Origin: Candidatus Levyibacteriota bacterium
GTDB lineage: Bacteria; Patescibacteriota; Microgenomatia; Levybacterales; GWA1-39-11
NCBI GenBank assembly: GCA_039738415.1
Contig: JBCLLY010000004.1
Coordinates: forward strand, 6,956 to 70,955
DNA length: 64,000 nt
Direction: 5' to 3'
The translations under genes were made by a program, and so were the position numbers. This document shows positions 11,357 through 59,356 of the stretch, in pieces. Under the pieces are notes generated by a model that was given only the letters and a program-made list of their open reading frames with translations, did no database searches and was not told the DNA's origin. Every line of letters begins with the position of its first letter. Within the stretch, counting starts at the first letter, position 1.

Positions 11357-11362
11357 AACTCT

Positions 11363-47507: not shown

Positions 47508-47508
47508 T

Positions 47509-49056
47509 TTAAAATTTAATAATTGGTCTTGAAATAAAATAAACTAAAACCAAGGCTGCAAGTACCGTTAGAGTGTTGCTTAGAGTTCTTACTAAATCAT
47601 CCTGGAAGAAGATATAAACCCTATCATCATACTGTTTGAGATTAAATTCAATAACTCCTAGTTCATTATCGTAATTAATTTCTCTTTCTTCTCCCTCTAC
47701 AAATACTTTCCACCCCGGCCAATAAATAGTATTTAACCTTATTATTGAATCAGAGTTAACCCTTGTTTGAAACTCTATCTTATTAGAGCTAACTATTAAG
47801 TCACTAATTTCTGCATCTCCTGAAATAATTTCAACTTTGCTTTCCGGACGGGAAGTTGGGGGAGACTTTACCCATACAGGCATATACTCACCATGCACTG
47901 TCGTAGTTGCTTCATTGGTCGAGTAGAATTCATCTGGGTTATTTGAATATTTTTGATCAGACAAATATTTATAACCTGAGAACGCTAACAAGCACAACAT
48001 AATAATTACAGCAACGACTTTTATTTTCTTGAATAATATATACGATATATATGAGGCGAAAAAACTTACTGCAACAATACTTAACGAAAGCATTCTAAAT
48101 GGAAATTGGATAAAGGAGGCATTAACATTTTCCCAGAAAAATGTACTAATATTGGTGCTTAAAAAAATTGAAATAATAAATATTATTGATAAAAATATAA
48201 GCAAACTTCGGTACGGTACTTTTTTAAAATCTTCCCTATAAATAATAAAAGTTAGAAGTGCTACTGCTGTAAATATTACAAATGACACAACTCCGATAAG
48301 ACTTACCTGCGCAAAATATTCTAAAGGATTAGAAATTAAAGTTTCAAAAAATTTAGTGTATTTAAGCTCAAATATGGCTGGTATAGTAAAGAAAGAAGAC
48401 AACAGTCCTCCTAAAATAATTCCCGGAAGAGATCTTAAAAAAGATTTTCTTAATAATGCATAGATTGGAATTAATGGCAGAAAAAGCACAGCAAGAGAAT
48501 TGTGAAATATTAAAATTGAAAAGACAGAGAGTGCTATTAAAATAGTACTCCCCTTCTCTATTCCGTAAAAAACTAAAGGCAATACTGATATCGAAAGTGC
48601 TTCGCCCAACGACCCCCTTTTATATATATCAAAAAGATGATATGGGGAATATACATAAATTAACGACCCGACTGCCGAATCTACTCTTCCAAAAAGTCTT
48701 CTAAGCCATAGGTAGGAAAATACTCCTGAAAAAATTAGAGACAATCCAAAAAGTATTTTTACCGTATCTATAAAACCAAAACCAATTAAATGTATTAAGG
48801 ATCCTAGATAAAGATATCCGGGATAAAGAAAATTGGACACTGGATATCCGTACCCGAAGTTAAGCCGCTCCAAAAATCTTGCAGGTATTTGTCCGTCCCG
48901 CAAAGTATCGTAAAAAGCAGACAAGCGGATAATCATCCACCCTCCGTCATCAGTTACGATAAACCCCTGATTTAATAACGGAATAATTGCAGGAACCGTA
49001 AGAAAAACTACAATCAAAATAAAAGGGGCGTTTTTAAATATTTCCGGTACTCTCAT
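47509..49056 (-). CDS. polytopic GT-C-like protein, paralog family C
   Basis: 515 aa. VTDDGGWMIIRL...DGQIPARFLERLNFGYGYPVSNFLYPGYLY, with C-terminal IYWPGWKVFVEGEEREI plus a TM. Confidence 0.68.
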   Translation of the reverse strand: MRVPEIFKNAPFILIVVFLTVPAIIPLLNQGFIVTDDGGWMIIRLSAFYDTLRDGQIPARFLERLNFGYGYPVSNFLYPGYLYLGSLIHLIGFGFIDTVKILFGLSLIFSGVFSYLWLRRLFGRVDSAVGSLIYVYSPYHLFDIYKRGSLGEALSISVLPLVFYGIEKGSTILIALSVFSILIFHNSLAVLFLPLIPIYALLRKSFLRSLPGIILGGLLSSFFTIPAIFELKYTKFFETLISNPLEYFAQVSLIGVVSFVIFTAVALLTFIIYREDFKKVPYRSLLIFLSIIFIISIFLSTNISTFFWENVNASFIQFPFRMLSLSIVAVSFFASYISYILFKKIKVVAVIIMLCLLAFSGYKYLSDQKYSNNPDEFYSTNEATTTVHGEYMPVWVKSPPTSRPESKVEIISGDAEISDLIVSSNKIEFQTRVNSDSIIRLNTIYWPGWKVFVEGEEREINYDNELGVIEFNLKQYDDRVYIFFQDDLVRTLSNTLTVLAALVLVYFISRPIIKF

Positions 49057-49235
49057 ATTTTCCCTCTTTTTCTTACAACACTTACTATTATAACCAATAA
49101 AGCACCGCTAATAGACAACAATGAAATCCACAATCCTACCTTAAAGGATAACGGCTCGTATCTATAAATTACCTCATGCGCGCCTTTAGGTAAAAATACA
49201 GCTCCAAATGCAGATACTGTTTCCTTTTTGATCAT
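49053..49235 (-). CDS. 60-aa stand-alone YfhO/GT-C C-terminal tail module (beta-strand plus TM anchor); split gene or relic
   Basis: AVFLPKGAHEVIYRYEPLSFKVGLWISLLSISGALLVIIV mirrors the last ~50 aa of the family-C/YfhO proteins. Its ATG lies 8 nt after the upstream stop, and it has a 4-nt ATGA overlap with the next gene. Confidence 0.5.
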   Translation of the reverse strand: MIKKETVSAFGAVFLPKGAHEVIYRYEPLSFKVGLWISLLSISGALLVIIVSVVRKRGKI

Positions 49236-49243
49236 AAATTCCT

Positions 49244-50770
49244 CTAGTCTTTTACTACTACTCTATAAATAGTAAGAGTATTATTTTTATCTGCTTTTTT
49301 ATACTCTGCAATTTTTTCAAGGGGCCAACCTAGCGGTGCTGCTCCTGGATATTCACATTGAGGACATGGTTGATAATAAACAAAATACGCTTCTTTAGTT
49401 CTTGCAATTTCTAGGACGTCTTCAGGGATAGTATCGTTAATTGGCCAGTATCCCACCACTTCAATATTTGGATTTGTCCCTAAATAAATTTCGTAAGAGT
49501 ATGGCATTAGACCAAAAGTGCCCTGCGTGCCAATAAATATTTCCTTGTTTTTTGCTTGCTGCTCAAAAAACTCAACAGACTCCCTTACTCCAGTACCGGC
49601 TGGCCATCCTCTAATAAATTGCCCGAGGTCAATTTCTGCAATCGGTGCATTTTCAAAATCCTTTAAAATCTTTACATCTACATATACCAAAAGCCCGGTA
49701 AAAACAGCTATTATTAAAAACTTAAGATATATTTGCTTTACTCTAGTAATCAAATACATTAAAGAGTATGCTGAAAGTATTAATAGAGGGATTGTCATAA
49801 AGAAAATAAATCTGGGATAAATAAGTTTTCCGAATATCGCCAACCCCATAAATGGACCCAAAAACCACAGAAATAAAAGCGCTTTCTCCCGGAAATATCT
49901 TTTTGGCTCGATTACAAATGAAGAGAAAACAAGAACTACAATAGGAATGGTCATATAAGTAATTACCCAATCCGTCATTCCGGAAAGGTTACTAGGAAGA
50001 TAAGTAAATGGGTGCTCTACCCATTCAAAAAATGGATACACAAATGTAGAGTTTTTTTGCTCAATTATATGAAAGAACGGTGATAGTCTTAATATTGAGT
50101 AAAAAAAGTATGCTAAAAATACTGATATTCCCAGTAATGCTACCCATTTAAAAAATCTTCTGACTAAATCTTTTTTTCTTAAATCAAACAGAATGAGCAG
50201 AAGCGGAGATAAATAAATAAATAAGAATCCCGAAGATTTAGTGAGAACTGCTCCACCCAAAATAAATCCTAAAACTAATGCTACATCTAATCTTAGTTTC
50301 CGGACCAATAAAACACTAAAAAATAATGCCCAGACTGAAAACATAGCAACAGCCGAGTCGTATAGTGCCATTTTGTCGTAAACTAAAGCAAAGGGAAAAA
50401 TTACATACAGCAGTGACGCAAGAATTGACAAATTCCTATTTTTAAAAAGTATTTGGGTTAAAAGAAAAACTCCAGTCAACGTTCCAAATCCTGTAAAAAC
50501 AGAGACCATCCTACCCGCAAGTAACGGGTCTTCAAAGAATCTAAGCATAACGAGCTGAAGCCAAATAAATGAAGGCTGCTTACCGTCCGTTAATGAGATG
50601 AACCTCCACGCAGAATCATTGTATGCTATTTGCGCCCATCTAGTATAAATTGCCTCATCAGTGAATATTGGCAAACTCATAATATTATAAATGCGCGTTA
50701 AAAAATATGAAGCGATAATAAGCAGTATCGCGCCTATTTCGAAAATATACTTACTGATAAATTTCATCAT
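49244..50770 (-). CDS. ArnT/GT39-GT83-like GT-C glycosyltransferase
   Basis: 508 aa. First loop LPIFTDEAIYTRWAQIAYND, about 12 TM segments, and a soluble C-terminal domain with CPQC. Confidence 0.7.
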   Translation of the reverse strand: MMKFISKYIFEIGAILLIIASYFLTRIYNIMSLPIFTDEAIYTRWAQIAYNDSAWRFISLTDGKQPSFIWLQLVMLRFFEDPLLAGRMVSVFTGFGTLTGVFLLTQILFKNRNLSILASLLYVIFPFALVYDKMALYDSAVAMFSVWALFFSVLLVRKLRLDVALVLGFILGGAVLTKSSGFLFIYLSPLLLILFDLRKKDLVRRFFKWVALLGISVFLAYFFYSILRLSPFFHIIEQKNSTFVYPFFEWVEHPFTYLPSNLSGMTDWVITYMTIPIVVLVFSSFVIEPKRYFREKALLFLWFLGPFMGLAIFGKLIYPRFIFFMTIPLLILSAYSLMYLITRVKQIYLKFLIIAVFTGLLVYVDVKILKDFENAPIAEIDLGQFIRGWPAGTGVRESVEFFEQQAKNKEIFIGTQGTFGLMPYSYEIYLGTNPNIEVVGYWPINDTIPEDVLEIARTKEAYFVYYQPCPQCEYPGAAPLGWPLEKIAEYKKADKNNTLTIYRVVVKD

Positions 50771-50791
50771 CTAATTATACACGTGAGCGAT

Positions 50792-51973
50792 TTATCTATG
50801 CAATTTACTAAAAGTCTTTGAACCAAATATAAAATATGAAGCAAGACCAAAAATAACCCCTAACACAATTAACATATTTTTATAATTTAAGATATCTTCC
50901 GGCCATATTCCGTTATAAAGAAACGGAACATATGAAGCAAGAATAATAAAAGATAATACAACGAAAATAAACCTTAAAAGCCTGTTTTCACAAAGAGCAA
51001 TAAGAGGGGCAACTAATAACAGATACCATGGTTGGAACTCCGAACCTTTGTTCTGACCTGAAGCAAGAGAAGTCGCAACAACCGCGAAAATGAGTAATGC
51101 CAAAGAGATTTGAATTATTTTTCCGTCACTAATTTTTTTTATAAACATCTTTATAAATAAAACTGGTAATAGAACTACGGTCGCATACTTTATACCAATA
51201 GAAATAATTAGACTTATCACTGAAAGTGTATTTCTCTTTAAAAAGAGCAAATATAAAGATAGAACCGCAAAAAACACCATTATGACTTCATTGTGCGCAG
51301 AAACTAAACCTTCGACTAAAACCAGTGGGTTTAAGGCAAATAAAACAATTGCTAAATGTACATTTTTTAACTTCAAATGCTCTGCGATTTTTTTTACTAA
51401 ATGCACAGTTGCTAAAAATGCTATTCCATTTAATAACTTAAATAGAAAAAAGCTAAGAAGAAATATTTCGTTTGCTATAAATGTTATAGGGACTGTTGCC
51501 ATAAGCCATACTGGTCCATACGGATATACCCTGTGAGTTGAGCGCATAAAGGATAACATCGGATCATTTGCAAAATCTAACGGCTTAAATTCGTATGGGT
51601 TAAGTCCATAGTAACTTACAATTCTTGCGTCAAAAATGTAATTAAATAAATCATAAGAAAACGCATTGTACGAAGGAATTAAAATTGCAGCCACTAAAAT
51701 TATTACTGTCCACAATGTTTTTTTATTAATTTTATTTTTTGAAACTAAATATATAGTCCATAAAAATAGAATGAATAAAAAAGAGATAATCCCAACATAT
51801 AGATAGGTAGAAAGTGGACGATCAAACCATCCTACGTACTGAAATGCTTTTTGTATTTCCTGCCAAATTGAAACCCTTGATAAAGTTAAAGATAAATCAA
51901 CCTGAGTAAATGAATAGAGAAACAAAGCTGAAACCCCAAGAAACCATAATGAAATGAGTGATTTATTAAGCAT
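50792..51973 (-). CDS. polytopic membrane protein, DUF2029/GT87-like (putative polyprenyl-P-dependent glycosyltransferase)
   Basis: 393 aa. YDLFNYIFDARIVSYYGLNPYEFKP...HRVYPYGPVWL resembles the mannosyltransferase-like DUF2029 loop. Confidence 0.5.
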   Translation of the reverse strand: MLNKSLISLWFLGVSALFLYSFTQVDLSLTLSRVSIWQEIQKAFQYVGWFDRPLSTYLYVGIISFLFILFLWTIYLVSKNKINKKTLWTVIILVAAILIPSYNAFSYDLFNYIFDARIVSYYGLNPYEFKPLDFANDPMLSFMRSTHRVYPYGPVWLMATVPITFIANEIFLLSFFLFKLLNGIAFLATVHLVKKIAEHLKLKNVHLAIVLFALNPLVLVEGLVSAHNEVIMVFFAVLSLYLLFLKRNTLSVISLIISIGIKYATVVLLPVLFIKMFIKKISDGKIIQISLALLIFAVVATSLASGQNKGSEFQPWYLLLVAPLIALCENRLLRFIFVVLSFIILASYVPFLYNGIWPEDILNYKNMLIVLGVIFGLASYFIFGSKTFSKLHR

Positions 51974-52003
51974 ACTTTCAAACTTGCACTTATGTAAATT
52001 AAC

Positions 52004-52097
52004 CTAATTGATCTAAGTGCTCTAATTGACCTAATTTAATTACGTAATTGGGATTTGATTAGATTAATTAGAAATTAGAATCATTAGAAATTAATTG
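52004..52097. repeat. degenerate short tandem repeats filling an intercistronic spacer
   Basis: 9-mers ctaattgat, ctaagtgct, ctaattgac and ctaatttaa (52004-52039), then repeated attagaa/attaatt motifs up to 52097. Confidence 0.7.
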
Positions 52098-52846
52098 TAA
52101 ATTCCTTCCATTATATTTCTTTTTATTCTAAATAGATCAAACAGCCCCTCAATAGAATCCTTAATCGGACTGACCCTCCTCGTCTCTACATAAAGCCAAA
52201 TAACAGGAACTTCTTTTATTTTATACCCTTTATTTTCGGCAACAAATAGGAGCTCTATATCAAATCCTGCTGTCACAGATGAACCCTTTATAGTCTTAAA
52301 TCCACCATGAACTTCTCTTATTTTTCCAAATATATCTTTCGCTGCTTTTTTTGTAAATAACTTAAAACCACACTGGGTGTCTTTAATTCCAGGGATACCT
52401 ATTATAATAGAACGAAGAGTTATCATTCCCTTTGCCATCATTTTACGTGTAATTGGGGCCCCCCTTCTTTGTCCTTCCCTAGACCCTATCACAACATCAA
52501 ATCCCTTATCTACATACAACAATAGCTTTTCCAACTCTTCAATGGGCGTTGCCTGATCCATATCTGTAAATAAAATATAATCCCCTTTTGCGCTTATAAC
52601 TCCCTGAGTTACAGCTCCTGCTTTACCACTATGTTCTCCCTCTATTAGGCGGACTTTTTTATTCTCTTTTATAAATTTAGCTACGAACTCACGGCTTCCA
52701 TCGGTGCTACCATCATCGACAACTATTACCTCATAATCATACTTTTGCCGGGAAAGATAGGTTAACACCTTATCAAGCGTACCTTTCTGGAGATTGCCCA
52801 TCTCATTGTACGAGGGGATAACAACAGAAAGAATAAAATTAGTCAT
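52091..52846 (-). CDS. GT2 polyprenyl-phosphate sugar synthase-like glycosyltransferase (ALG5/DPM1-like); first gene of the minus-strand block
   Basis: 251 aa. LSVVIPSYNEMGNL, VVDDGSTDGS, and FTDMDQATPIEEL. Confidence 0.8.
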   Translation of the reverse strand: MTNFILSVVIPSYNEMGNLQKGTLDKVLTYLSRQKYDYEVIVVDDGSTDGSREFVAKFIKENKKVRLIEGEHSGKAGAVTQGVISAKGDYILFTDMDQATPIEELEKLLLYVDKGFDVVIGSREGQRRGAPITRKMMAKGMITLRSIIIGIPGIKDTQCGFKLFTKKAAKDIFGKIREVHGGFKTIKGSSVTAGFDIELLFVAENKGYKIKEVPVIWLYVETRRVSPIKDSIEGLFDLFRIKRNIMEGIYN

Positions 52847-52852
52847 ATGGTT

Positions 52853-52860
52853 ATTATACA
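52853..52860 (-). promoter_or_regulatory. extended -10 element; leaderless-type promoter at the head of the glycosylation block
   Basis: Minus-strand tgtataat ends 6 nt before ATG 52846, with no SD. Confidence 0.55.
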
Positions 52861-52891
52861 GAAAAAAAGGGCTTATTTGAAACTATTTTAT

Positions 52892-52920
52892 TTGATAAGT
52901 GTACTTAAATTCCATATAAT
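52892..52920 (+). promoter_or_regulatory. sigma70 promoter driving the tRNA-fragment / GIY-YIG / tRNA-Glu unit
   Basis: ttgata (52892-52897), 17-nt spacer, tataat (52915-52920). Confidence 0.6.
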
Positions 52921-52939
52921 ATCTAGGCTGAAATGCTTT

Positions 52940-53007
52940 CGGCCCCATAGTTCCCGACGAATTCCATTCGTGCGGGATTCCGATAGAATAGCGTATCGGG
53001 ACTAGCG
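52940..53007 (+). other. 5' fragment of tRNA-Glu interrupted by a 50-nt double-hairpin insert
   Basis: cggccccatagt (52940-52951) equals 53258-53269. The insert spans 52952-53001 and folds into hairpins 52952-52977 and 52978-53001. ctagcg (53002-53007) equals 53270-53275. Confidence 0.6.
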
Positions 53008-53018
53008 ACAAAATTAAC

Positions 53019-53273
53019 GTGTATTTTACTTATATAATCAAAAGTTTAAAAAATGGTAAATACTATATAGGTAGTACTAACAATATTGAAAGAAGGGTTT
53101 CGGAACATAACACGGGTCATTCAAAATACACTAAGAATAAGGGACCATTTGAACTAGTATATAAAGAAGAATATAATACCAATTCGGAGGCAAAAAAGAG
53201 AGAATATTATTTCAAATCATTAAAAAGTAGTAAAGCAATTGAAAAATTAATACATTACGGCCCCATAGTCTAG
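53019..53273 (+). CDS. minimal GIY-YIG nuclease domain protein (YhbQ/COG2827-like)
   Basis: 84 aa with a GTG start. YFTYIIKS...KYYIGSTNNIERRVSEHN and EAKKREYYFKS. The stop codon TAG 53271-53273 lies 15 nt inside tRNA-Glu. Confidence 0.85.
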   Translation: MYFTYIIKSLKNGKYYIGSTNNIERRVSEHNTGHSKYTKNKGPFELVYKEEYNTNSEAKKREYYFKSLKSSKAIEKLIHYGPIV

Positions 53274-53330
53274 CGGTTAGGACACTTGGTTCTCATCCAA
53301 GAGACCCGGATTCGAATTCCGGTGGGGTCA
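53259..53330 (+). tRNA. tRNA-Glu (anticodon CTC)
   Basis: 72-nt manual cloverleaf. Acceptor ggcccca/tggggtc (one G-U pair), D-arm gtctagcggttaggac, anticodon arm cttgg-ttCTCat-ccaag, T-arm ccgga-ttcgaat-tccgg, discriminator A. No encoded CCA. Confidence 0.85.
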
Positions 53331-53496
53331 CCCTTCGACAGGCTCAGGATTTTACACTAAATATCTGAAGTACAAACGCATCTATTGCATTCACGCGGGT
53401 TCGCTATTCAGTAAGTACTATAGTATAATGATTATGGTTCTATACATTTTCTAATTCTCCCCGTTCTTGGAATTACAGTCTGTATCTCATCTCATT

Positions 53497-54537
53497 ATGA
53501 AAAAACTTATAAATAACCGCTATGCTAATTATTACCTGAATGCTGCGGATAAACTTGGTCTCAAGTATAAAATTATTAATAGTCAGGCAGCTTTAGCAAG
53601 AATTTATGATGACGACAAGTCAATTGAACTAAGTGCAAATGTACTTAGTCTAAATTCTCAACTGAGTGCTGCTCTTGCAACAAACAAAAAGAAAACTTCA
53701 TTACTTCTTAGAGATGAAAACATCCCGGTCCCTGACTTTAAGACATTTAGAGATCCAAAGCTTGCGGAAAAATATCTTTTGAATAAACTAAAAGGAATTC
53801 AAACATACGTAGTAAAACCTTTAAGCGGGTCACTTGCAATTGGGATTACCATAAACCCAATGACATATGGTCAGGTAGTACAAGCACTAAAGGAAGCGTT
53901 TGAAGAAAACTCAGAAATAATTATTGAGAAGTATATTCCCGGACAGCACTACCGCATTACCGTACTGGATGACGAAGTTATTGCAATCACTCAACGACTT
54001 CCAGCTTATGTCGTAGGAGATGCACAAAAAACCGTAGAAGAACTTATTGCGGAAAAAAACATAAAAAGAAATATACGTAACCTTCCACCAATAATTCTCC
54101 GCACAAAAGACCATAATTACCTGAAAACCAAGAAAATTAAAACTAGCACCATTTGTCCTGAAGGAGAACAATTAACTTTACAATTGGGGTGTGATATGAA
54201 TATAGGAGGAGAAAGAAAACGCATCGACAGAGATTTCGTTCCTGAGATAAATAAAGATTTATTTATAACGGCAGCCAGAACTTTGGACCTGCGCTTCGCC
54301 GGCATTGATTATATTTCTCCAGACATTACCATACCCTATACTCGGGTTGTAAGCGCTATAAATGAAATAAATAGTGCTCCTCATTCTGACGTGCATTACC
54401 GCGACACATATCCATTTGACAATTACGCTGCAGAGAGAATAATTGAGAAAATATTTGGCAGGGATATTCTCAACGTGCAAAATCCGCTTCTCAACAGTGA
54501 AGCGGCAGTGGATATTTATTCACCTTTTATCGGATAA
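53497..54537 (+). CDS. ATP-grasp ligase resembling the N-terminal (G) domain of cyanophycin synthetase / RimK-like
   Basis: KKKTSLLLRDENIPVP, YVVKPLSGSLAIGI, IIIEKYIPGQHYRITVLDDEVIAITQRLPAYVVGDAQKTVEELI, GCDMNIGGERKRID, LRFAGIDYISPDI, and INEINSAPHSDVHY. ATG 53497 is preferred over TTG 53467. Confidence 0.7.
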   Translation: MKKLINNRYANYYLNAADKLGLKYKIINSQAALARIYDDDKSIELSANVLSLNSQLSAALATNKKKTSLLLRDENIPVPDFKTFRDPKLAEKYLLNKLKGIQTYVVKPLSGSLAIGITINPMTYGQVVQALKEAFEENSEIIIEKYIPGQHYRITVLDDEVIAITQRLPAYVVGDAQKTVEELIAEKNIKRNIRNLPPIILRTKDHNYLKTKKIKTSTICPEGEQLTLQLGCDMNIGGERKRIDRDFVPEINKDLFITAARTLDLRFAGIDYISPDITIPYTRVVSAINEINSAPHSDVHYRDTYPFDNYAAERIIEKIFGRDILNVQNPLLNSEAAVDIYSPFIG

Positions 54538-54548
54538 TTTATTATAAT

Positions 54549-56945
54549 TTAATCTGCGGCGATTGGTTGCGGAACCTTTAGTTTTGATTCCTTCTCTCCT
54601 TGAATTTTCTTGAATCCCTCGATCGGTTTTGTTAAGGCCTCCTTCAGCACTTCATCCATATGCGATGCGAATACAAAACGTAAGTCTTTTGCTACTTCTT
54701 TCGGAATTTCCTCCAAATCTTTTCTATTCTCTTTGGGTAAAATTAACGTTCGTATTCCGGCACGATGGGCTGCAATCACTTTTTCTTTTACTCCACCAAT
54801 TTCAAGTATTCTTCCCCGAAGCGTAACCTCTCCAGTCATTCCCACCATTCTATTTACGGGAATTTTAGTTAGAGCTGATACTATTGCGGTAGTTATAGCT
54901 CCTCCTGCAGACGGTCCGTCTTTGGGGACAGCGCCTTCCGGAACATGTACATGAACATCTATAGTTCTATAAAAATTCTCATCAAGCCCAAATTTATTTG
55001 CGCGGGCGCGAATATAAGTCAATGCCGCCTGACAGCTTTCTTTCATAACATCACCTAACTGTCCAGTCAGAACTAGCTGACCTTTTCCGGGCATAAGTGC
55101 TACTTCTATAAATAGAATTTCTCCACCAACCTCTGTCCAAGCAAGACCGGTACTCATCCCTATTTCGTTTTTCTTCTCAGCCAGGGTTGAGGTATATCTC
55201 GCTGGTCCCAAAAACTTTTTAATATTTTTTTCTGTTACTTCCATTTTCTTTTTCTTTCCCTCAGCCACATTCCTGGCAATTTTTCTAAATACTTTTGCTA
55301 TCTCACGCTCTAGGCTTCTAACACCGGCCTCCCTGGTATATCTTTGGATTATATACTGCAGTGCTTTATCAGAAATCTCCACATTGTTACTTTTTAGTCC
55401 ATTTGCTTCAAGCTGTTTTTTTACTAAATATTTTTTTGCTATGTGAAATTTCTCTTCGCTTGTATATCCTGCAAAGTTAATTGTCTCTAACCTATCGCGA
55501 AGTGCAGGTGGAATGGTGTGTAAAAGATTTGAGGTTGTAATAAACATAACATCTGATAAATCAAACGGTACTTCTAAATAATGGTCTGAAAACGCATTAT
55601 TTTGCTCCGGATCTAATGCTTCCAAAAGCGCAGAAGATGGATCTCCCCTATAATCTGCTCCCACCTTATCTATCTCGTCAAGCATAAATACGGGATTATT
55701 TGTCTTTGCATCTTTTATTCCCAGAATAATTCGTCCCGGCATTGCTCCCACATAAGTTCTTCTATGGCCTCTTATTTCTGCCTCATCATGGATACCACCA
55801 AGAGACATTTTTACAAATTCACGTCCTAATGCTTTTGCAATTGACTTTCCTATAGAGGTTTTGCCTACCCCAGGAGGTCCATTAAAACACAAAATTGGTC
55901 CTTTCATTTTGCCTGATAATTTATGAACCGCCAAATACTCAATGACTCTCTCTTTTACCTTGTTTAATCCGTAATGTTCTTCGTCCAGAATTTTTTCAGC
56001 GTCTTTAAGCTTAATATCGTTTTTACTCTTCTCGCTCCAAGGGAGTCCTACAAGCGTCTCCAAATAATTTCTTATGTACCCAGATTCGGGATTGTATGGA
56101 GTAAGCTGTTGAAGTTTCTTAAGCTCTTTTCTGGCCTTTTCTTCAACGTCCTCAGGCATTTTTGCTTTCTTTATCTTATCCTGTAACTCTTTTATCTCAC
56201 CTATATCATCGCCTTCACCCAACTCTTTCTCAATACTCTTAAGTCTTTCGCGTAAGATAGCATCCTTTGTAGTCTTTTCAAACTTTTCCTGAGTTCTATT
56301 CGTAATTCTTCTTTCAAGTTCCAAAACTTTTACCTCACGGGATAAATATTCTGATACTTTCTCTAGCCTTTTTTTCACTTCAAAAATTTCCAATATCTCC
56401 TGCCTTTCGCTTCCTTTAATATCCAACGTTGAGGCTATTTGATCTGCAAGTTCCGCCGGATTTATGTCAGACATTATATTCATAAAGACTAAAAAGTCCG
56501 CCTGTTTTCCTAAACTTAATGATTTCTTAAATAATGAAGTTACGTGATTCATAAGCGCAGTCATTTCATCACTTTGTGTAATAGTCTCCTCTATCTCTTC
56601 CAAAACAGCCTCCAGGTGTTCTGCTGATTGGTTATAACTCACAATTCTTGCCCTTGAAATCCCCCTTACTAATGCATTTACCTCGCCATCAGATCTAATC
56701 ATACGCTCAATGTGCGCAATTGTTCCCACTTCATAAAGCTCAGTAAGATCCGGATTATTTTGCCTAGGGTTTTTTTGAAGCACGAAACACACAAGCCTTT
56801 CGCCTGTAAAAGCGTTTTCAAGCGCTGCAAGACTTTTGGGTCTGCCGAAGGTCAAAATTGACTCCGTATGTGGAAATACTATCCCGTCCCGGATAGGTAT
56901 TACAGGCACATGCTGCAGGTTAGAATCGGATCTTTTTGGTATCAT
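54549..56945 (-). CDS. lon: ATP-dependent Lon protease (LonA)
   Basis: 798 aa. N-terminal VPVIPIRDGIVFPH, Walker A GPPGVGKTS, and the protease motif VPKDGPSAGGAITTAIVS. Confidence 0.95.
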   Translation of the reverse strand: MIPKRSDSNLQHVPVIPIRDGIVFPHTESILTFGRPKSLAALENAFTGERLVCFVLQKNPRQNNPDLTELYEVGTIAHIERMIRSDGEVNALVRGISRARIVSYNQSAEHLEAVLEEIEETITQSDEMTALMNHVTSLFKKSLSLGKQADFLVFMNIMSDINPAELADQIASTLDIKGSERQEILEIFEVKKRLEKVSEYLSREVKVLELERRITNRTQEKFEKTTKDAILRERLKSIEKELGEGDDIGEIKELQDKIKKAKMPEDVEEKARKELKKLQQLTPYNPESGYIRNYLETLVGLPWSEKSKNDIKLKDAEKILDEEHYGLNKVKERVIEYLAVHKLSGKMKGPILCFNGPPGVGKTSIGKSIAKALGREFVKMSLGGIHDEAEIRGHRRTYVGAMPGRIILGIKDAKTNNPVFMLDEIDKVGADYRGDPSSALLEALDPEQNNAFSDHYLEVPFDLSDVMFITTSNLLHTIPPALRDRLETINFAGYTSEEKFHIAKKYLVKKQLEANGLKSNNVEISDKALQYIIQRYTREAGVRSLEREIAKVFRKIARNVAEGKKKKMEVTEKNIKKFLGPARYTSTLAEKKNEIGMSTGLAWTEVGGEILFIEVALMPGKGQLVLTGQLGDVMKESCQAALTYIRARANKFGLDENFYRTIDVHVHVPEGAVPKDGPSAGGAITTAIVSALTKIPVNRMVGMTGEVTLRGRILEIGGVKEKVIAAHRAGIRTLILPKENRKDLEEIPKEVAKDLRFVFASHMDEVLKEALTKPIEGFKKIQGEKESKLKVPQPIAAD

Positions 56946-56948
56946 GGA

Positions 56949-56975
56949 TTAGCAGTGTAGCAAATCATTTGCTAA
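56949..56975. promoter_or_regulatory. CIRCE-like inverted repeat immediately upstream of lon
   Basis: ttagcagtg-tagcaaatc-atttgctaa (9-9-9) compared with CIRCE TTAGCACTC-N9-GAGTGCTAA. The outer TTAGCA/TGCTAA arms match. An inner perfect palindrome tagcaaat-c-atttgcta spans 56958-56974. The element ends 4 nt from the lon ATG. Confidence 0.35.
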
Positions 56976-57228
56976 CTGTCAATACTCTCTAGTTTGAAGT
57001 AGTTTATCTGAATTATAACTAGGTGTCAAGGATACCCAAACGCCCTCAAATAGACAAATTAATTACTACTATTTTTTTTATTTTAAATGCATCATAATTA
57101 TTCTTGCGCGAATAATCGCAGGAATGTGGAGCTCAAATATTTCCGTTGCGCAAGGTGGCACGCCTTAACTCAAATGCTTAAAAATTCTATCATTTAAATC
57201 TCTTCCGTTGGCTTTAATATTAACTCTT

Positions 57229-57237
57229 TGGTATAAT
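57229..57237 (+). promoter_or_regulatory. extended -10 promoter driving the tRNA-Gln-fragment / GIY-YIG / tRNA-Gln unit
   Basis: tggtataat (TGnTATAAT). The predicted transcription start is about 5 nt before the first nucleotide of the tRNA-like fragment. Confidence 0.55.
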
Positions 57238-57249
57238 TTGAGTCTACAT

Positions 57250-57323
57250 TGCCGGATAGCCTAATGATAGCCAGCGCTTACAGCGCGGTCTCGCCCTAAG
57301 GCGATGAGACAACGGGTTCTGAA
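57250..57323 (+). other. tRNA-Gln-like 5' half (acceptor 5' strand to anticodon loop) carrying a 37-nt D-arm insert
   Basis: tgccggatagcctaatgatag + ccagcgcttacagcgcggtctcgccctaaggcgatga + gacaacgggttctgaa. Compare the intact tRNA tgctggatcgtctaatggtag + gacaacggattctgga. The insert is identical to that in the units at 57655-57874. Confidence 0.6.
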
Positions 57324-57335
57324 ATTGTTTAATAT

Positions 57336-57578
57336 ATGTTTGCTACCTATATACTTAAAAGTCAGACTAAGGAATGGTATTACATAGGTCATACATCAAA
57401 CATTGAAAATAGATTAAAAGAACATAATATGGGTAGAAGCAAATCGACCAAACCATATATGCCACTTGTACTAAAATACAAAGAAGATTTTAATACAAAA
57501 GGCGAAGCGTTCAAAAGAGAGCAACAAATTAAGAACTACAAGCATGGAGAAGCATTTAAGAAATTGATTGGTATCTAG
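57336..57578 (+). CDS. minimal GIY-YIG nuclease domain protein (YhbQ/COG2827-like)
   Basis: 80 aa. FATYILKS...WYYIGHTSNIENRLKEHN and EAFKREQQIKN. The stop lies 3 nt before tRNA-Gln. Confidence 0.85.
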   Translation: MFATYILKSQTKEWYYIGHTSNIENRLKEHNMGRSKSTKPYMPLVLKYKEDFNTKGEAFKREQQIKNYKHGEAFKKLIGI

Positions 57579-57581
57579 GGC

Positions 57582-57652
57582 TGCTGGATCGTCTAATGGT
57601 AGGACAACGGATTCTGGATCCGTTTATCTAGGTTCAAATCCTAGTCCAGCAG
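57582..57652 (+). tRNA. tRNA-Gln (anticodon CTG)
   Basis: 71-nt manual cloverleaf. Acceptor tgctgga/tccagca (U1-A72), D-arm gtct-aatggta-ggac, anticodon arm acgga-ttCTGga-tccgt, T-arm ctagg-ttcaaat-cctag, discriminator G. Followed by cc. Confidence 0.85.
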
Positions 57653-57654
57653 CC

Positions 57655-57768
57655 GTAGATACGAGTCGTCTAATGGTAGCCAGCGCTTACAGCGCGGTCT
57701 CGCCCTAAGGCGATGAGACAACGGATTCTGGATCCGTTTATCTAGGTTCAAATCCTAGTCCAGCAGCC
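57655..57768 (+). repeat. 114-bp tRNA-Gln-like tandem unit B (D-arm insert, no complementary 5' acceptor strand)
   Basis: gtagatacgag, then tRNA-Gln nt 8-22, then the 37-nt insert (57680-57716), then tRNA-Gln nt 23 to the 3' end plus cc. The 7 nt in the acceptor position (atacgag) cannot pair with tccagca. Confidence 0.8.
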
Positions 57769-57874
57769 GTAGATACGAGTCGTCTAATGGTAGCCAGCGC
57801 TTACAGCGCGGTCTCGCCCTAAGGCGATGAGACAACGGATTCTGGATCCGTTTATCTAGGTTCAAATCCTAGTC
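57769..57874 (+). repeat. tRNA-Gln-like tandem unit C (second copy, divergent 3' end)
   Basis: Identical to unit B through cctagtc (57874), then diverges (tcccagctcagtccc), so the 3' acceptor strand is lost. Confidence 0.8.
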
Positions 57875-57993
57875 TCCCAGCTCAGTCCCTAACAGGCGGG
57901 GACATGTTTATTGGGGTTTTAAACCGCTATGCTCAGCAAAAAAAATAGCCTTGAAAATTAGAACCGAACGCCAGTTCAAACCTTTTTTGCTAC

Positions 57994-58001
57994 TGTATAA
58001 T
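57994..58001 (+). promoter_or_regulatory. extended -10 element upstream of the helicase gene
   Basis: tgtataat, 23 nt before ATG 58025. Confidence 0.45.
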
Positions 58002-58024
58002 AACATTAGAAAATACTATTTTTT

Positions 58025-59356
58025 ATGACACAACAAGAAGCCTTTGACTTACTAAAAATGGGGCATAATGTTTACCTAACCGGCGCGGCAGGCAGTGGAA
58101 AAACATACTTATTAAACAAATACATCGGGTTCCTAAAAAATAAGAAGGTTGGAGTAGGTATTACTGCCTCAACTGGGATTGCCGCAACACACATGAATGG
58201 TCGGACTATCCATTCATGGTCCGGAATGGGTATTAAAGATGCGCTAACTAAGGAAGATCTCAGTAAGCTTCTTGCCAAGCGGTATCTCCGTAAGACTTTC
58301 GCCGAGGCAAAGGTGCTTATCATTGATGAAATTTCCATGCTTCACTCTTTTCGTCTGGATATGGTTGATAGAATTTGTAAGGCGTTCAAAGAAAGTACAT
58401 TACCCTTTGGAGGAATACAAGTTGTTCTCTGCGGAGACTTTTTTCAATTACCCCCGGTAAGCAAAAATGGTGAGGAAGCAAATTTTGTCCATAAATCAGA
58501 TATTTGGCAAGAAATGGATATTAAAATCTGTTATCTTGAGGAACAGCACCGGCAGGAAGATAAACCGTTTTTACAAGTTCTGAATGATATAAGAAGCAAT
58601 ACTGTAAGCGATACGACAAAACAGTCCTTAAACAGCCGGCATAACAAAGAGGTTGCAATTGATATTCCACCAACAAAACTATTCACCCATAATGCAGATG
58701 TTGACGCTATCAACAACATGGAACTGGAAAAGATTAAGAAAGAACCACAAATATACCAAATGTCATCAAGAGGCATTGACGCGCTCGTTGAAACATTAAA
58801 GAAAAACTGTCTAGCCCCCGAGCAATTAATTCTTAAAAAGGGAGCAGTTGTCATGTTTGTCAAAAATAACTTTGAGAAAGGATATGTGAATGGAACACTT
58901 GGAAAAGTGGCGGGCTTTGATAAAGAGAGTTACCCGATTATTGAAACTGTCTCAAAAGATAAAATTATTGCTATGCCTGAAAAGTGGACAATAGAGGAAG
59001 GAAACAAAATTATTGCGGAAATTAATCAAATACCGCTCCGCCTTGCTTGGGCGATCACTGTTCATAAAAGCCAAGGAATGAGCCTTGACGCGGCAGTTAT
59101 TGATCTTTCCAAAGCATTTGAGCCGGGGATGGGGTATGTTGCTCTATCAAGGGTGAGAACTCTTGTTGGAATAAAACTGTTAGGTATCAATGACACTGCA
59201 TATGAGGTAAGTGCTGAAGCGATAGAACTGGACAGACAACTTATCAATCTTTCAAAACATGAAGAAAATAATCTCAAAAATCTAGGATGGTTGGAAAAAC
59301 ATAAAAGGCAAAATCAGTTTATCGGAAGTATAACCCCCAAAAAAGTAAAGACTTAA
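58025..59356 (+). CDS. Pif1/RecD-like superfamily-1 DNA helicase
   Basis: 443 aa. Walker A LTGAAGSGKTYLL, motif II LIIDEISML, LCGDFFQLPPV, and the C-terminal AWAITVHKSQGMSLD. Confidence 0.88.
   Translation: MTQQEAFDLLKMGHNVYLTGAAGSGKTYLLNKYIGFLKNKKVGVGITASTGIAATHMNGRTIHSWSGMGIKDALTKEDLSKLLAKRYLRKTFAEAKVLIIDEISMLHSFRLDMVDRICKAFKESTLPFGGIQVVLCGDFFQLPPVSKNGEEANFVHKSDIWQEMDIKICYLEEQHRQEDKPFLQVLNDIRSNTVSDTTKQSLNSRHNKEVAIDIPPTKLFTHNADVDAINNMELEKIKKEPQIYQMSSRGIDALVETLKKNCLAPEQLILKKGAVVMFVKNNFEKGYVNGTLGKVAGFDKESYPIIETVSKDKIIAMPEKWTIEEGNKIIAEINQIPLRLAWAITVHKSQGMSLDAAVIDLSKAFEPGMGYVALSRVRTLVGIKLLGINDTAYEVSAEAIELDRQLINLSKHEENNLKNLGWLEKHKRQNQFIGSITPKKVKT

Follow-up and report, generated by a model that had tools for sequence, protein, structure and literature searches.

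A GIY-YIG nuclease gene between a tRNA promoter and its tRNA: a possible selfish cassette with signature hairpins in bacterial tRNA genes

Introduction

SegB, in the tRNA cluster of phage T4, is encoded by a small non-intronic GIY-YIG gene lying among or next to tRNA genes (PMC2330249; review PMC2988022). The free-standing GIY-YIG genes of the T-even phages are present or absent between close relatives, and they are inherited together with the tRNA region that flanks them, the neighbouring allele being replaced as well (PMC2330249; PMC2988022). The locus analysed here shares the small non-intronic gene, its position beside a tRNA and the presence/absence pattern, and linked inheritance would fit what is seen at its tRNA-Gln counterpart. 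SegB-type proteins are however phage-borne and have a DNA-binding domain, while the protein described below is a catalytic core of about 80 aa, assigned here to the SLX1/UPF0213 lineage and encoded on a bacterial chromosome. We know of no phage GIY-YIG element described with a partial tRNA duplication, with conserved palindromic hairpins, or with an ORF stop codon inside the tRNA.

tRNA genes are also targeted by integrase islands and prophages, which restore a complete tRNA at one end and have a directly repeated partial copy at the other, as is seen here (PMC9897764). Such elements encode an integrase and are 9-23 kb long or more (PMC9897764). Their partial copy is uninterrupted, whereas the present element is about 0.3 kb long, encodes a nuclease, usually duplicates the 5' part of the tRNA and carries signature hairpins. 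In integrase elements it is usually the 3' part that is repeated.

tRNA genes of the same host group are interrupted by ribozyme introns of 184-894 nt, located in the anticodon loop and sometimes associated with homing endonucleases (a few encode HNH, LAGLIDADG or PD-(D/E)XK enzymes). The present element likewise interrupts tRNA sequence, but Rfam finds no intron ribozyme in it, only the D arm of a redundant copy is broken, and an intact tRNA exists alongside.

Allomyces mitochondrial DNA contains short elements, with evidence for mobility, that form two adjoining hairpins (Paquin et al. 2000, as cited in PMC3787672), and to that extent they resemble our hairpins. The Allomyces system differs in being fungal and mitochondrial, in having a protein-coding target, and in the unrelated sequence of its hairpins. 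To our knowledge, those hairpins have not been tied to any specific nuclease. Paquin et al., in 1994, are also said to have described an Allomyces mobile endonuclease ORF that carries a replacement piece of its host gene (atp6), the displaced piece being left as a pseudogene.

In REP/RAYT systems, conserved short imperfect palindromes, single or paired, flank a small nuclease gene, and the same is true here. RAYTs are HUH/Y1 enzymes, and REPs are dispersed in hundreds of intergenic copies. Our hairpins, unlike REPs, are found almost only in tRNA-derived DNA near the ORF. The protein is GIY-YIG and not HUH/Y1, and membership of the REP/RAYT group was rejected, only the arrangement of palindromes flanking a nuclease being analogous.

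Structures of UPF0213-type proteins were solved in 2005 with no function assigned, and as far as we know they still have none. SLX1 requires SLX4 and carries a RING domain. We are not aware of any UPF0213, SLX1 or HIGLE protein that is linked to tRNA genes. The UPF0213 proteins BH0048 (PDB 1zg2) and EF2693 (PDB 1ywl), SLX1 and HIGLE are the closest relatives of the protein described here, in sequence and in fold.

Here we analyse a stretch of 64,000 nt (the window) in which such a gene is found next to a tRNA-Glu and again next to a tRNA-Gln. On balance, and with only moderate confidence, we propose that the tRNA-Glu locus is one copy of a widespread and apparently undescribed selfish cassette of homing type, which resides in tRNA genes and either rebuilds or replaces the tRNA. 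Full-text literature searches found no description of this layout. If the proposal is true, stand-alone GIY-YIG proteins of UPF0213 type would for the first time have a biological context, and a substrate on which they could be tested. It would also add a class of very small mobile or selfish elements, of about 0.3 kb, which survive by sitting between a tRNA promoter and its tRNA and rebuilding or replacing that tRNA.

The tRNA-Glu locus

The features of the locus are as follows.

52892..52920, + strand: promoter, TTGATA-17-TATAAT (promoter scan score 11/12)
52941..52951, + strand: displaced copy of tRNA-Glu positions 1-11 (11/11 identical to 53259-53269)
52952..52977, + strand: hairpin 1, TCCCGACGAAT-TCC-ATTCGTGCGGGA, outer stem TCCCG/CGGGA (fold prediction; covariation in relatives)
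52978..53001, + strand: hairpin 2, TTCCGATA-GAATAGCG-TATCGGGA (fold prediction; family motif CCGA..TCGG; covariation)
53002..53007, + strand: displaced copy of tRNA-Glu positions 12-17 (ctagcg, matching the tRNA)
53019..53273, + strand: 84-aa stand-alone GIY-YIG ORF with GTG start (Pfam PF01541, E=7.6e-20)
53259..53332, + strand: intact tRNA-Glu(CUC) (ARAGORN; Rfam tRNA, 65.7 bits)

The canonical promoter reported in the initial annotation has a -35 box TTGATA at 52892-52897 and TATAAT at 52915-52920, separated by 17 nt; the coordinates were exact, and the scan score supports it. It was also noted there that the 12-mer cggccccatagt at 52940-52951 recurs 318 nt downstream, at 53258-53269. The repeat is real, but the whole 12-mer is not the start of the tRNA: because the tRNA starts at 53259 (ARAGORN; Rfam), the repeat consists of tRNA positions 1-11 and a leading flank c. 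The remainder of the layout is as first described. Exactly 50 nt follow (52952-53001), whose minimum free energy fold is two adjoining hairpins (52952-52977 and 52978-53001), after which tRNA sequence resumes with ctagcg (53002-53007, tRNA-Glu positions 12-17), and 11 nt further on the 84-aa ORF begins with GTG at 53019. Its TAG stop codon (53271-53273) lies within the tRNA, at positions 13-15, and tRNA positions 1-15 encode the last four codons of the ORF together with the stop.

The 318 nt between the two tRNA-Glu copies have the GIY-YIG ORF as their sole content. There is no tyrosine or serine recombinase, and an integrase-type genomic island was rejected. An intron or other known RNA was rejected: Rfam cmscan (E<=10, positions 52000-58500) returned only tRNA matches, none of them on the leader. 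With no ribozyme match in that search and an uninterrupted tRNA present, a group I or group II intron was discarded. A split, permuted or BHB-intron tRNA was also rejected, since the tRNA-Glu and tRNA-Gln are complete (65.7 and 64.1 bits) and the hairpin-bearing copies score at most 26 bits or go undetected. ARAGORN finds only these two intact tRNAs in the window.

Relatives have TTGnnA-17-TAAAAT at an equal distance 5' of their leaders, and ORF-free relatives have TATAAT 12-13 nt 5' of tRNA position 1. We infer that the promoter at 52892-52920 drives the leader, the ORF and the tRNA-Glu together, although no transcript has been observed. A promoter-like site inside the ORF (TTGAAC-17-TATAAT, 53149-53177, score 10/12) was rejected as a family feature, as its hexamers vary among relatives and track the amino acid sequence. 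It is not excluded as a tRNA promoter in this window.

The tRNA-Gln locus

The initial annotation considered that a tRNA-Gln locus 4 kb away follows the same logic. The design is indeed the same, with the addition of two tandem hairpin-bearing tRNA copies of 114 nt that had been overlooked, each being tRNA-Gln from position 8 with the same 37-nt insert.

57232..57237, + strand: TATAAT -10 box, context TGGTATAAT, 5' of the Gln leader (read from sequence; identical in L094)
57250..57321, + strand: Gln leader, comprising tRNA-Gln positions 1-21, a 37-nt double hairpin and tRNA-Gln positions 22-35
57336..57578, + strand: 80-aa GIY-YIG ORF (Pfam E=6.1e-15; 55.7 bits)
57582..57654, + strand: intact tRNA-Gln(CUG), acceptor stem UGCUGGA/UCCAGCA (ARAGORN; Rfam 64.1 bits)
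57655..57768, + strand: tandem unit 2, comprising a 13-nt spacer and tRNA-Gln positions 8-73 with a 37-nt double hairpin
57769..57882, + strand: tandem unit 3, like unit 2 as far as position 65, beyond which come TCTCCCAGC, a 3' acceptor strand, and its flank

In the leader, 57250-57270 is 17/21 identical to tRNA-Gln positions 1-21, 57271-57307 is the double hairpin, and 57308-57321 corresponds to positions 22-35. A double hairpin at the same place (21/22) is found in L076, L078 and L083. The Gln-linked ORF is 51% identical to the Glu-linked ORF (tblastn), and its stop lies 3 nt before the tRNA. The intact tRNA-Gln (57582..57654) is an ORF-linked allele, set apart by three compensatory base-pair changes from the one in the close relative L094. 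Unit 2 gives a tRNA score of only 26 bits in Rfam, under threshold. By sequence, TCTCCCAGC and the flank that end unit 3 are a remnant of the displaced resident (L094-type) tRNA-Gln.

The encoded protein

The Glu ORF matches PF01541 with 71.4 bits, against a cut-off of 22.6. Across 52 sequences there is no variation at Y16, G18, R26, H30, N31, Y48, E62 or K66, and almost none at Y5. AlphaFold2 generates a model of the 84-aa protein with a pLDDT of 92 and the topology E-E-H-E-H-H. By its sequence match, by conservation of the GIY Tyr, the YIG Tyr-x-Gly, the Arg and the catalytic Glu, and by a predicted beta-beta-alpha-beta-alpha fold, the protein belongs to the GIY-YIG superfamily; nuclease activity itself is inferred.

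Sequence comparisons gave E-values of 2.1e-14 for 1zg2, 2.4e-12 for 1ywl, 2e-5 for SLX1 and 8e-3 for I-TevI. Foldseek matched the model to UPF0213, HIGLE (TM 0.72, 1.8 A rmsd), Slx1, I-TevI and UvrC, an order that agrees with the sequence ranking. The protein is thus placed, by similarity and modelling, in the UPF0213/SLX1/HIGLE lineage, I-TevI and UvrC being more distant than UPF0213 and SLX1. The catalytic domain accounts for the whole of the 84 aa, with no DNA-binding domain of the kind found in I-TevI and Seg enzymes. In homologues too the C-terminal tail is encoded by the tRNA (GPIV, AAIV and GAFV, for example).

No NCBIfam model matched above its cut-offs. A phage origin was rejected, as a scan of viral contigs gave nothing beyond weak generic GIY-YIG matches, which were either long at 33-43% identity or short and N-terminal. 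PADLOC produced only marginal matches (E of 9e-4 or weaker, spanning 22-30 residues), so a known defence system is not indicated.

Recurrence of the layout in related loci

Taken alone, the window's Glu leader is weak evidence. The 12-mer has E=0.24 in blastn-short across the 64-kb window, and the fold has a z-score of -1.29, not significantly more stable than shuffled sequence. These two values are what could be said for chance similarity, or for an ordinary decaying tRNA pseudogene with unrelated local hairpins. The layout is however conserved in dozens of independent assemblies. A total of 73 related loci were recovered, mostly from Patescibacteria, the rest being on contigs whose labels include Bacteroidota and Chloroflexota. 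In about 90% of the loci a tRNA directly adjoins the ORF. The adjoining tRNA is on the same strand in 49/54 genome loci and in 16 of the 18 metagenome loci scanned, the other two of which stop at a contig edge.

A partial copy of the locus's own tRNA, defined as an exact match of at least 10 nt no more than 200 nt upstream of the ORF, is present in 33 of 45 loci with an intact tRNA after the ORF, and in only 3/171 control windows. In loci of the opposite order, with the intact tRNA ahead of the ORF, the partial hairpin-bearing copy is downstream of the ORF. Seventeen tRNA-Glu leaders align in the order tRNA 1-11, hairpin, hairpin, tRNA 12 onward, with compensatory changes at 7/18 predicted pairs. 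The resumed tRNA copy in relatives runs to about position 30, and we regard the leader in the window as a degenerate example of the family leader. CCGA..TCGG hairpins are 20-fold enriched around the ORFs (75 in 40.5 kb) over other DNA (18 in 195 kb). The 33/45 against 3/171 tRNA matches, the covariation of the hairpins and their enrichment near ORFs refute the chance or pseudogene reading, to which we now attach practically no credence.

The separation of a tRNA promoter and tRNA 5' end from a regenerated tRNA, by a structured insert and a nuclease ORF, therefore recurs across the family. Absence of the stub matches from relatives had been named as an outcome that would refute the idea, but the stub (tRNA 1-11) is retained in the 17 aligned relatives. 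The argument that the layout reflects a mechanism and not chance is borne out by these leaders, with their covariation, and by the tRNA-match counts.

ORF clades track tRNA identity. At five tRNA-Glu loci (L003, L004, L009, L015 and L018) the acceptor strand of the leader differs from that of the adjoining intact tRNA.

The hairpins

The hairpins of the family have a signature palindrome, TCCCG...CGGGA. The outer stem TCCCG/CGGGA is kept across phylum labels, while the inner stems covary, and the hairpin type varies with ORF clade (TCCCGA type, or CCAGCGCC plus TCTCGCC type). The hairpins are a conserved, family-specific motif and not an insert specific to one locus. The exact pattern CCCGA..TCGGG has no match in the window, because the copies there are slightly degenerate. 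A dispersed repeat was rejected, since a looser scan of the window found only 52978-53001 and an unrelated-looking intergenic hairpin at 12391-12408.

Two simple roles for the hairpins were rejected. If they served to break up direct repeats and so prevent deletion of the ORF, their conservation across phyla would be unexplained, and L019 keeps an uninterrupted repeat of more than 70 nt. A switch that hides the ribosome-binding site is contradicted by the variable distance and side of the hairpins relative to the ORF. An analogy to type III toxin-antitoxin systems, with a repeat array beside a nuclease, was set aside, as most Glu loci have no array.

The distribution of the hairpins allows other readings. 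It is possible, though we do not think it probable, that they are mini-elements similar to those of REP/RAYT systems, and that the GIY-YIG nuclease inserts or copies tiny non-autonomous palindromes into tRNA-like DNA. The tRNA duplications would then be landing pads and by-products of repeated breakage and repair, and hairpins would persist only in redundant tRNA copies because insertion into a working tRNA is lethal. Intact tRNAs were never found to carry a hairpin, as this predicts. Hairpins also accumulate, with one to four per partial copy, extra ones in L009 and L016, and hairpins inserted inside an existing hairpin (nested) in L075. One module occurs in both orientations, L012 having the exact reverse complement of the window's hairpin 1. 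Modules are shuffled relative to the ORF tree, the core of hairpin 1 being common to L005, L009, L014 and L016 while the window's ORF groups with L001. Hairpin-bearing units form tandem arrays, and the nuclease is of a structure-specific lineage. On the other hand, the hairpins are not dispersed but confined to the vicinity of ORF and tRNA (in the 64-kb window, only to the Glu and Gln loci), no target-site duplications are visible, and we know of no GIY-YIG enzyme that mobilises palindromes. Simple insertion also fails to explain why in some copies whole tRNA arms are replaced precisely at the stem base.

The arm-replaced copies retain the outline of a tRNA-like cloverleaf, which suits a different reading, in which the tRNA-like leader or trailer and its hairpins form a cis-acting RNA element with no role in DNA mobility. 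Such an element might stabilise the mRNA end, act as an autoregulatory binding site or decoy for the nuclease, or prevent misfolding of the stub with the tRNA. It would fit with the promoter directly 5' of the leader, with the finding that hairpin-bearing copies are always on the ORF strand and within the inferred transcript, and with the excess at the outer stem pair of T-G wobbles (sense strand) over C-A (13 against 3). Several observations make us think it unlikely. Hairpins lie 5' or 3' of the ORF and at variable distances from the start codon, so a single mechanism of translational control is improbable; the inverted hairpin in L012 suits DNA better than RNA; no Rfam family matches; and neither the presence/absence polymorphism nor the replacement of tRNA alleles described below is explained. 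The initial annotation had offered a tRNA-mimic leader controlling the nuclease as one of two alternatives. It cannot be excluded, but it is not needed, and it leaves the downstream hairpin-bearing copies unexplained.

A more speculative suggestion, which we rate as a long shot, is that the hairpin-bearing partial tRNA is a nucleic-acid specificity module for guided, structure-specific homing. Whether as RNA or as single-stranded DNA, it could anneal through its tRNA-identical flanks to the opposite strand of an intact tRNA gene without unfolding of the hairpins. This would build a four-way junction, the type of substrate cut by nucleases of the SLX1/HIGLE lineage, and an 80-aa enzyme without a DNA-binding domain could thereby be aimed at one tRNA gene. 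Pure insertions have two hairpins (Glu at 11/12, Gln at 21/22, and the Ser D loop) and replacements of a whole arm have one (Lys, Phe, Ile, Pro, Leu and Asp). It is suggestive that both arrangements give exactly four helices in a heteroduplex with the intact gene. L031, L019 and L022 are exceptions to this regularity.

Occupied and empty loci

In L055 and L058, whose Lon is 91-92% identical, the locus is a promoter and a tRNA-Glu only, with no ORF, stub or hairpin. Comparison with relatives that lack the ORF shows a plain promoter and tRNA-Glu. Global pairwise alignments of occupied against empty loci are noisy outside the homologous blocks and served solely to check where those blocks begin and end.

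Over 8.1 kb, L094 and the window are 99.06% identical. At the Gln locus of L094 the leader persists, the ORF is absent, and the tRNA-Gln differs at three acceptor base pairs; the 3' strand and flank of this resident type survive in the window at the end of unit 3. The Gln leaders of the two differ at 5/72 positions (7%), against a background of about 1%. The divergence of allele and leader fits co-transfer with the nuclease gene, and fits ordinary allelic recombination as well. The Glu ORF of L094 has five substitutions, all nonsynonymous, two of which depart from the family consensus. The nuclease gene is thus polymorphic for presence and absence at a conserved target among close relatives.

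These comparisons also bear on the proposal that the gene is a domesticated host enzyme and not selfish, which would deal with branched or hairpin DNA that forms where tRNA genes are strongly transcribed, for example through transcription-replication conflicts or invading elements. Enzymes of the SLX1/HIGLE lineage act on branched DNA. The order GT2 glycosyltransferase, cassette, tRNA-Glu is kept, with an intact ORF and invariant catalytic motifs, in relatives whose GT2 is only 56-72% identical, and the PADLOC result, by giving no indication of a known defence system, is also compatible with a host function. Yet close relatives do without the ORF, the nonsynonymous changes in the L094 Glu ORF and the absence of the Gln ORF fit a decaying selfish gene, and it is left unexplained that the ORF always has a hairpin-bearing partial tRNA copy beside it. 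We accordingly give little weight to this proposal.

The initial annotation's other alternative, a cassette that invades or replaces tRNA genes, is favoured by the empty Glu loci of relatives and by the Gln allele of L094. We hypothesise that a nuclease gene of about 80 codons (GIY-YIG, SLX1/UPF0213 lineage) has become wedged between a functional tRNA and the promoter that belongs to it. The displaced part of the tRNA gene would remain next to the promoter and form the 5' leader of the mRNA for the nuclease, broken by the signature palindromic hairpins. Leader, ORF and tRNA would be co-transcribed and the tRNA then excised by RNase P; because this cut takes off the stop codon of the ORF at the Glu locus, nuclease output there is expected to be low. 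Gain and loss of the cassette would occur by recombination, with the tRNA-derived sequences on either side serving as homology arms, and gain would most likely be triggered when the nuclease cuts an unoccupied or hairpin-bearing tRNA locus. The incoming DNA may rebuild the tRNA (Glu) or carry its own tRNA allele (Gln), so that the host retains a gene it needs and the cassette is hard to get rid of. As to the hairpins, they most likely mark the borders of the cassette as structured DNA sites cognate to the nuclease. What we have observed is the architecture and how it is conserved, the polymorphism between occupied and empty loci, the replacement of a tRNA allele, and the lineage to which the nuclease belongs; the activity and target of the nuclease, the joint transcription with cleavage by RNase P, and what the hairpins do are inferred only.

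Several points count against the cassette. The nuclease has not been seen to act, neither a cleavage site nor a transcript has been observed, and it is not explained how a catalytic core without a DNA-binding domain would recognise one particular tRNA gene. The immunity of occupied loci is also unexplained, because the intact tRNA beside the ORF retains any target that lies wholly within the tRNA. Simple homing does not require strong conservation of hairpin sequence. The conserved gene order at 56-72% GT2 identity would equally fit long vertical retention or a host function, and the difference between the window and L094 could be plain allelic replacement by homologous recombination, with no need of a nuclease.

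If the cassette swaps tRNA alleles, as the three compensatory acceptor pairs that differ between genomes 99% identical suggest, it would be a way for core translation genes to be replaced horizontally. Should the hairpins be nuclease sites or a guiding module, the compact pair of hairpin and nuclease would be a potentially useful tool. It is worth adding that the cassette accounts for tRNA-like fragments and tandem pseudo-tRNAs by which tRNA annotation is confused, in Patescibacteria and in other phyla.

Organisation of the tRNA-Glu and tRNA-Gln loci

At two loci in the window a cassette, made up of a leader (a partial tRNA copy interrupted by hairpins) and a small GIY-YIG ORF, is wedged between a tRNA promoter and an intact tRNA.

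Glu locus
52892-52897 and 52915-52920: promoter hexamers TTGATA and TATAAT, 17-nt spacer (11/12 in a promoter scan)
52940-52951: 12-mer cggccccatagt, repeated at 53258-53269 (read from the sequence)
52952-52977 and 52978-53001: two adjacent hairpins within a 50-nt insert (predicted fold)
53002-53007: ctagcg, tRNA-Glu positions 12-17
53019: GTG start of an 84-aa ORF, whose TAG stop is tRNA positions 13-15 (Pfam GIY-YIG, E=7.6e-20)
53259-53332: intact tRNA-Glu(CUC) (ARAGORN and Rfam, 65.7 bits)

Gln locus
-10 box TGGTATAAT, preceding the leader
After the -10 box: tRNA-Gln positions 1-21 (17/21 identical)
57271-57307: 37-nt double hairpin of the leader, then tRNA-Gln positions 22-35
57336-57578: 80-aa GIY-YIG ORF, 51% identical to the Glu-linked ORF
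57582-57654: intact tRNA-Gln(CUG), beginning 3 nt past the ORF
57655-57768 and 57769-57882: two perfect tandem 114-nt units, 3' of the intact tRNA-Gln

The initial annotation of the Glu locus is borne out in its promoter, its interruption by two hairpins, the resumption of the tRNA copy at ctagcg, and the GIY-YIG ORF that stops inside the tRNA. Its reading of the 12-mer as the start of the tRNA needs correction: the repeat is exact, but ARAGORN and Rfam place the first base of the tRNA at 53259, so that the tRNA (positions 1-11) accounts for only 11 of the 12 bases. Taken by itself the sequence of this locus is weak evidence, because the 12-mer has E=0.24 in a similarity search across the window and the fold of the leader z=-1.29 against shuffles. 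The hairpins are slightly degenerate (a bulged G in hairpin 1; hairpin 2 starts TTCCG), and the leader ends at tRNA position 17, while those of relatives run on to about 30.

The Gln locus, 4 kb away, was said to follow the same logic, and indeed shares the design, with more parts. Each tandem unit consists of a 13-nt spacer and tRNA-Gln from position 8 onward, with the same 37-nt insert inside, and scores 26 bits in Rfam, under threshold. The spacer, CCGTAGATACGAG, ends in ATACGAG; these 7 nt occupy the position of the 5' acceptor strand and do not match the tRNA, and the units are therefore without this strand. The spacer is kept as CCGTAGATACAAG in the related locus L075, though the ORFs are just 69% identical.

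It is worth adding that 53388-53418 (cacgcgggttcgctattcagtaagtac) is weakly similar to the T arm and 3' end of tRNA-Glu of the type found in relatives L041 and L054 (CGCGGGTTCGAATCCCGC...GGTAC). Weak as the similarity is, the stretch may be what is left of an older, decayed tRNA copy.

Distribution of the cassette

Homologues of the Glu ORF, mostly 83-84 aa, are found in Levybacteria, Daviesbacteria, Gottesmanbacteria and other Patescibacteria. Their C-terminal tails (for example GPIV, AAIV, GAFV and GSIV) are translated tRNA 5' ends, and over-extended gene calls include translated hairpins (PDEFHSCGI, IIGASG). A genome scan for the ORF, limited to a single genome for each species, gave 54 loci, 49 of them with a same-strand tRNA adjoining the ORF. 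In 36 loci the 5' end of an intact tRNA coincides with the ORF 3' end or lies just within it; Glu predominates, and Gln, Lys, Phe, Ile, Asp and Pro are also represented. The tRNA comes first in the other 13 loci (Leu, Gln, Phe, Asn, Lys), and there the ORF 3' end passes directly into a further copy of that tRNA, from about position 10-13 onward, followed by the same spacer/terminator as the intact copy. Hairpin-bearing partial copies lie on both sides or in tandem in L012, L025, L031, L042 and L043. Metagenomes scanned with the Gln ORF contributed one clade linked to tRNA-Gln and another linked to tRNA-Ser, both of the same layout. In the ORF phylogeny, clades track tRNA identity, and the Lys, Gln and Phe clades each contain both gene orders.

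Of the 45 ORF-then-tRNA loci, 33 have a perfect match of 10 nt or more to their own tRNA in the 200 nt preceding the ORF, compared with 3 of 171 control windows. The layout is real, and it extends to several phyla.

Among L002, L004, L011, L012, L014 and L017, several contigs titled 'uncultured Gammaproteobacteria' are evidently Patescibacteria from their gene content and synteny, so the phylum labels of these metagenome-assembled genomes need caution.

Hairpins

The palindromic hairpins occur in partial tRNA copies and never in the intact tRNA. Their signature, (G/A)TCCCG[AY or CC]-loop-CGGGA(T/C), is found 75 times in 40.5 kb around the ORFs and 18 times in the other 195 kb, an enrichment of about 20-fold, and 43 of the 54 loci have at least one. 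In 17 aligned tRNA-Glu leaders the order is invariable (tRNA 1-11, hairpin, hairpin, tRNA 12 onward); compensatory changes affect 7 of 18 consensus pairs, all in inner stems, and the outer stem is conserved in sequence. This enrichment and covariation, with the tRNA matches upstream of the ORFs, refute chance or a plain pseudogene as an explanation, for which we see almost no room.

Paired, purely inserted hairpins characterise Levybacteria Glu, the window-type Gln clade and the Ser clade. A single hairpin replaces the anticodon arm exactly at the stem base in loci for Lys, Phe, Ile, Pro and Leu and in the remaining Gln loci, and in Asp loci it takes the place of the T arm. The window-type Gln clade has different hairpins (CCAGCGCC..GGCGCGG, then TCTCGCC..GGCGATGA), L075 has two additional hairpins nested within hairpin 2, and L012 carries the exact reverse complement of window hairpin 1. 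Nested, inverted and shuffled hairpins would suit a REP/RAYT-like system, in which hairpin mini-elements would be propagated into tRNA-like DNA by the nuclease. This is possible but doubtful, given that the hairpins are confined to cassette loci and that the replacement of tRNA arms is precise.

Solitary family-type hairpins lie beside tRNA genes without a GIY-YIG ORF in L029 (440-459, directly after tRNA-Gly) and L005 (1632-1656, about 70 nt upstream of tRNA-Lys), and could be relics of lost cassettes. In the window, an intergenic hairpin at 12391-12408 (GTCCGATGAACATCGGAC), just upstream of an ORF at 12439, is similar but not identical to the family motif, and has no tRNA or GIY-YIG ORF nearby.

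Expression

A TTGnnA-17-TA(A/T)AAT promoter is found at a fixed short distance 5' of leaders, and likewise 5' of empty tRNA genes, which have no cassette. The Glu ORF also contains a second promoter-like site (TTGAAC-17-TATAAT, 53149-53177, about 80 nt upstream of the tRNA), but its hexamers are not conserved in relatives. From this we infer that the ORF is most probably part of the pre-tRNA 5' leader. RNase P cleaves at the tRNA 5' end. Such a cut would part mRNA from tRNA and, in Glu-type loci, would also take off the ORF stop codon, so that nuclease output should be limited.

The outer stem pair of the hairpins is T-A in 49 cases, C-G in 14, T-G in 13 and C-A in 3, a weak bias toward sense-strand folding. 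This wobble bias and the co-orientation of strands are what would be expected if the leader or trailer acted purely at the RNA level; we consider this unlikely, since its side and distance relative to the ORF vary, and presence and absence are polymorphic.

The encoded protein

The protein is a catalytic core only, with Y16, G18, R26, H30, N31, Y48, E62 and K66 invariant across 52 sequences. The nearest solved structures are the UPF0213 proteins BH0048 (2e-14) and EF2693, then SLX1, with I-TevI far behind. An AlphaFold2 model (pLDDT 92) superimposes best on BH0048, on HIGLE (TM 0.72, 1.8 A), a plant junction nuclease, and on Slx1. We know of no function for BH0048 or EF2693, and the cassette gives UPF0213-type nucleases a concrete, testable context. 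For the ORF protein, NCBIfam and PADLOC gave no match above threshold, and the viral collection searched held no close relatives. We give little credence to a scheme, not ruled out by the data, in which the hairpin-bearing tRNA copy guides a junction-specific nuclease to the intact gene via a four-way junction, and about as little to a domesticated host nuclease.

Relation to known elements

In Allomyces, double-hairpin elements are associated with a mobile endonuclease ORF by which part of atp6 was displaced. These mitochondrial elements show evidence of mobility (Paquin et al. 2000, cited in PMC3787672). The nearest functional analogue is T4 SegB, whose free-standing GIY-YIG gene lies within a cluster of tRNA genes and skews the inheritance of that region (PMC2330249), but this is a larger phage enzyme without tRNA stub or hairpins. 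Integrase-borne islands resemble the cassette in that a complete and a partial copy of the tRNA are left behind (PMC9897764), but they are kilobases long and encode a recombinase. Group I introns occur in Patescibacteria tRNA genes (PMC13011429) and are distinct; an Rfam search found no ribozyme in the cassette, and this reading was rejected. Literature searches returned no description of this nuclease-hairpin-tRNA arrangement, which appears to be undescribed. We class the cassette as kin to known free-standing homing-type nuclease genes and tRNA-targeting elements.

Occupied and empty loci

Comparison of relatives with and without the ORF, suggested in the initial annotation, proved possible at the tRNA-Glu locus, both occupied (L001, L094) and empty (L055, L058) relatives being found. 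L001, L002, L017, L018 and L041 retain the order GT2 glycosyltransferase, cassette, tRNA-Glu, with a GT2 that is 56-72% identical to the window's, so the cassette is able to persist for long. More closely related are L055 and L058 (GT2 81-83%, Lon 91-92% identical), in which tRNA-Glu(CUC) has its own TATAAT 12-13 nt upstream and the locus shows no ORF, stub or hairpin. The L058 tRNA-Glu differs from that of the window only in three compensatory pairs of the anticodon stem, and its 3' flank is homologous. Orthologous loci were anchored in part on a minus-strand run of membrane glycosyltransferases (45822-52846: YfhO, PMT_2, MptA/B-like, then GT2), whose order is common to Levybacteria relatives.

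L094 (GCA_039738455.1) is 99.06% identical to the window over 49206-57321 and carries the Glu cassette; its Gln locus is the most informative occupied/empty comparison. There the leader and double hairpin are followed by 26 nt and then by tRNA-Gln with acceptor stem UGGGAGA/UCUCCCA, with no ORF. The working tRNA-Gln of the window has UGCUGGA/UCCAGCA and an otherwise identical body, and the third tandem unit terminates in the L094-type 3' strand TCTCCCAGC and the same flank. In the window, then, the Gln ORF goes with a tRNA-Gln allele of its own, and of the resident tRNA-Gln only a hairpin-bearing fragment persists. Between the two Gln leaders 5 of 72 positions differ, where the background is about 1%. 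In the Glu ORF (53019-53258; L094 6001-6240) there are 5 nucleotide differences, all nonsynonymous, compared with zero in flanking intergenic DNA and tRNA-Glu; they include the L094 changes G42E and K60N, which depart from the family consensus, and this suggests that the L094 copy is decaying. The leader acceptor strand is unlike that of the adjacent intact tRNA-Glu in L003, L004, L009, L015 and L018, and in the last three it matches tRNA-Glu genes of other genomes (L005, L010).

The comparisons show that the architecture recurs, that the hairpins are conserved, that close relatives have gained or lost the cassette, that a tRNA allele has been replaced, and to which lineage the nuclease belongs. 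We hypothesise, with little more than even confidence, that the cassette is a homing-type selfish element resident in tRNA genes. A break made by the nuclease would promote transfer of the cassette, the tRNA-derived sequences on both sides would serve as homology arms, and the incoming DNA would rebuild the tRNA (Glu) or supply its own (Gln); the hairpins would be the cognate structured sites of the nuclease at the cassette borders. Against homing, the protein has no DNA-binding domain, there is no explanation of why the intact tRNA next to it would be immune, vertical retention is long, and ordinary recombination could yield the difference between the window and L094.

In L094, tRNA-Gln and the PIF1-like helicase gene are also separated by an extra 441-aa ORF (10528-11853) without a Pfam match; the corresponding interval of the window is only about 110 nt long (about 57883-57992). 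The tRNA-Gln locus is therefore a hotspot of gain and loss beyond the GIY-YIG cassette.
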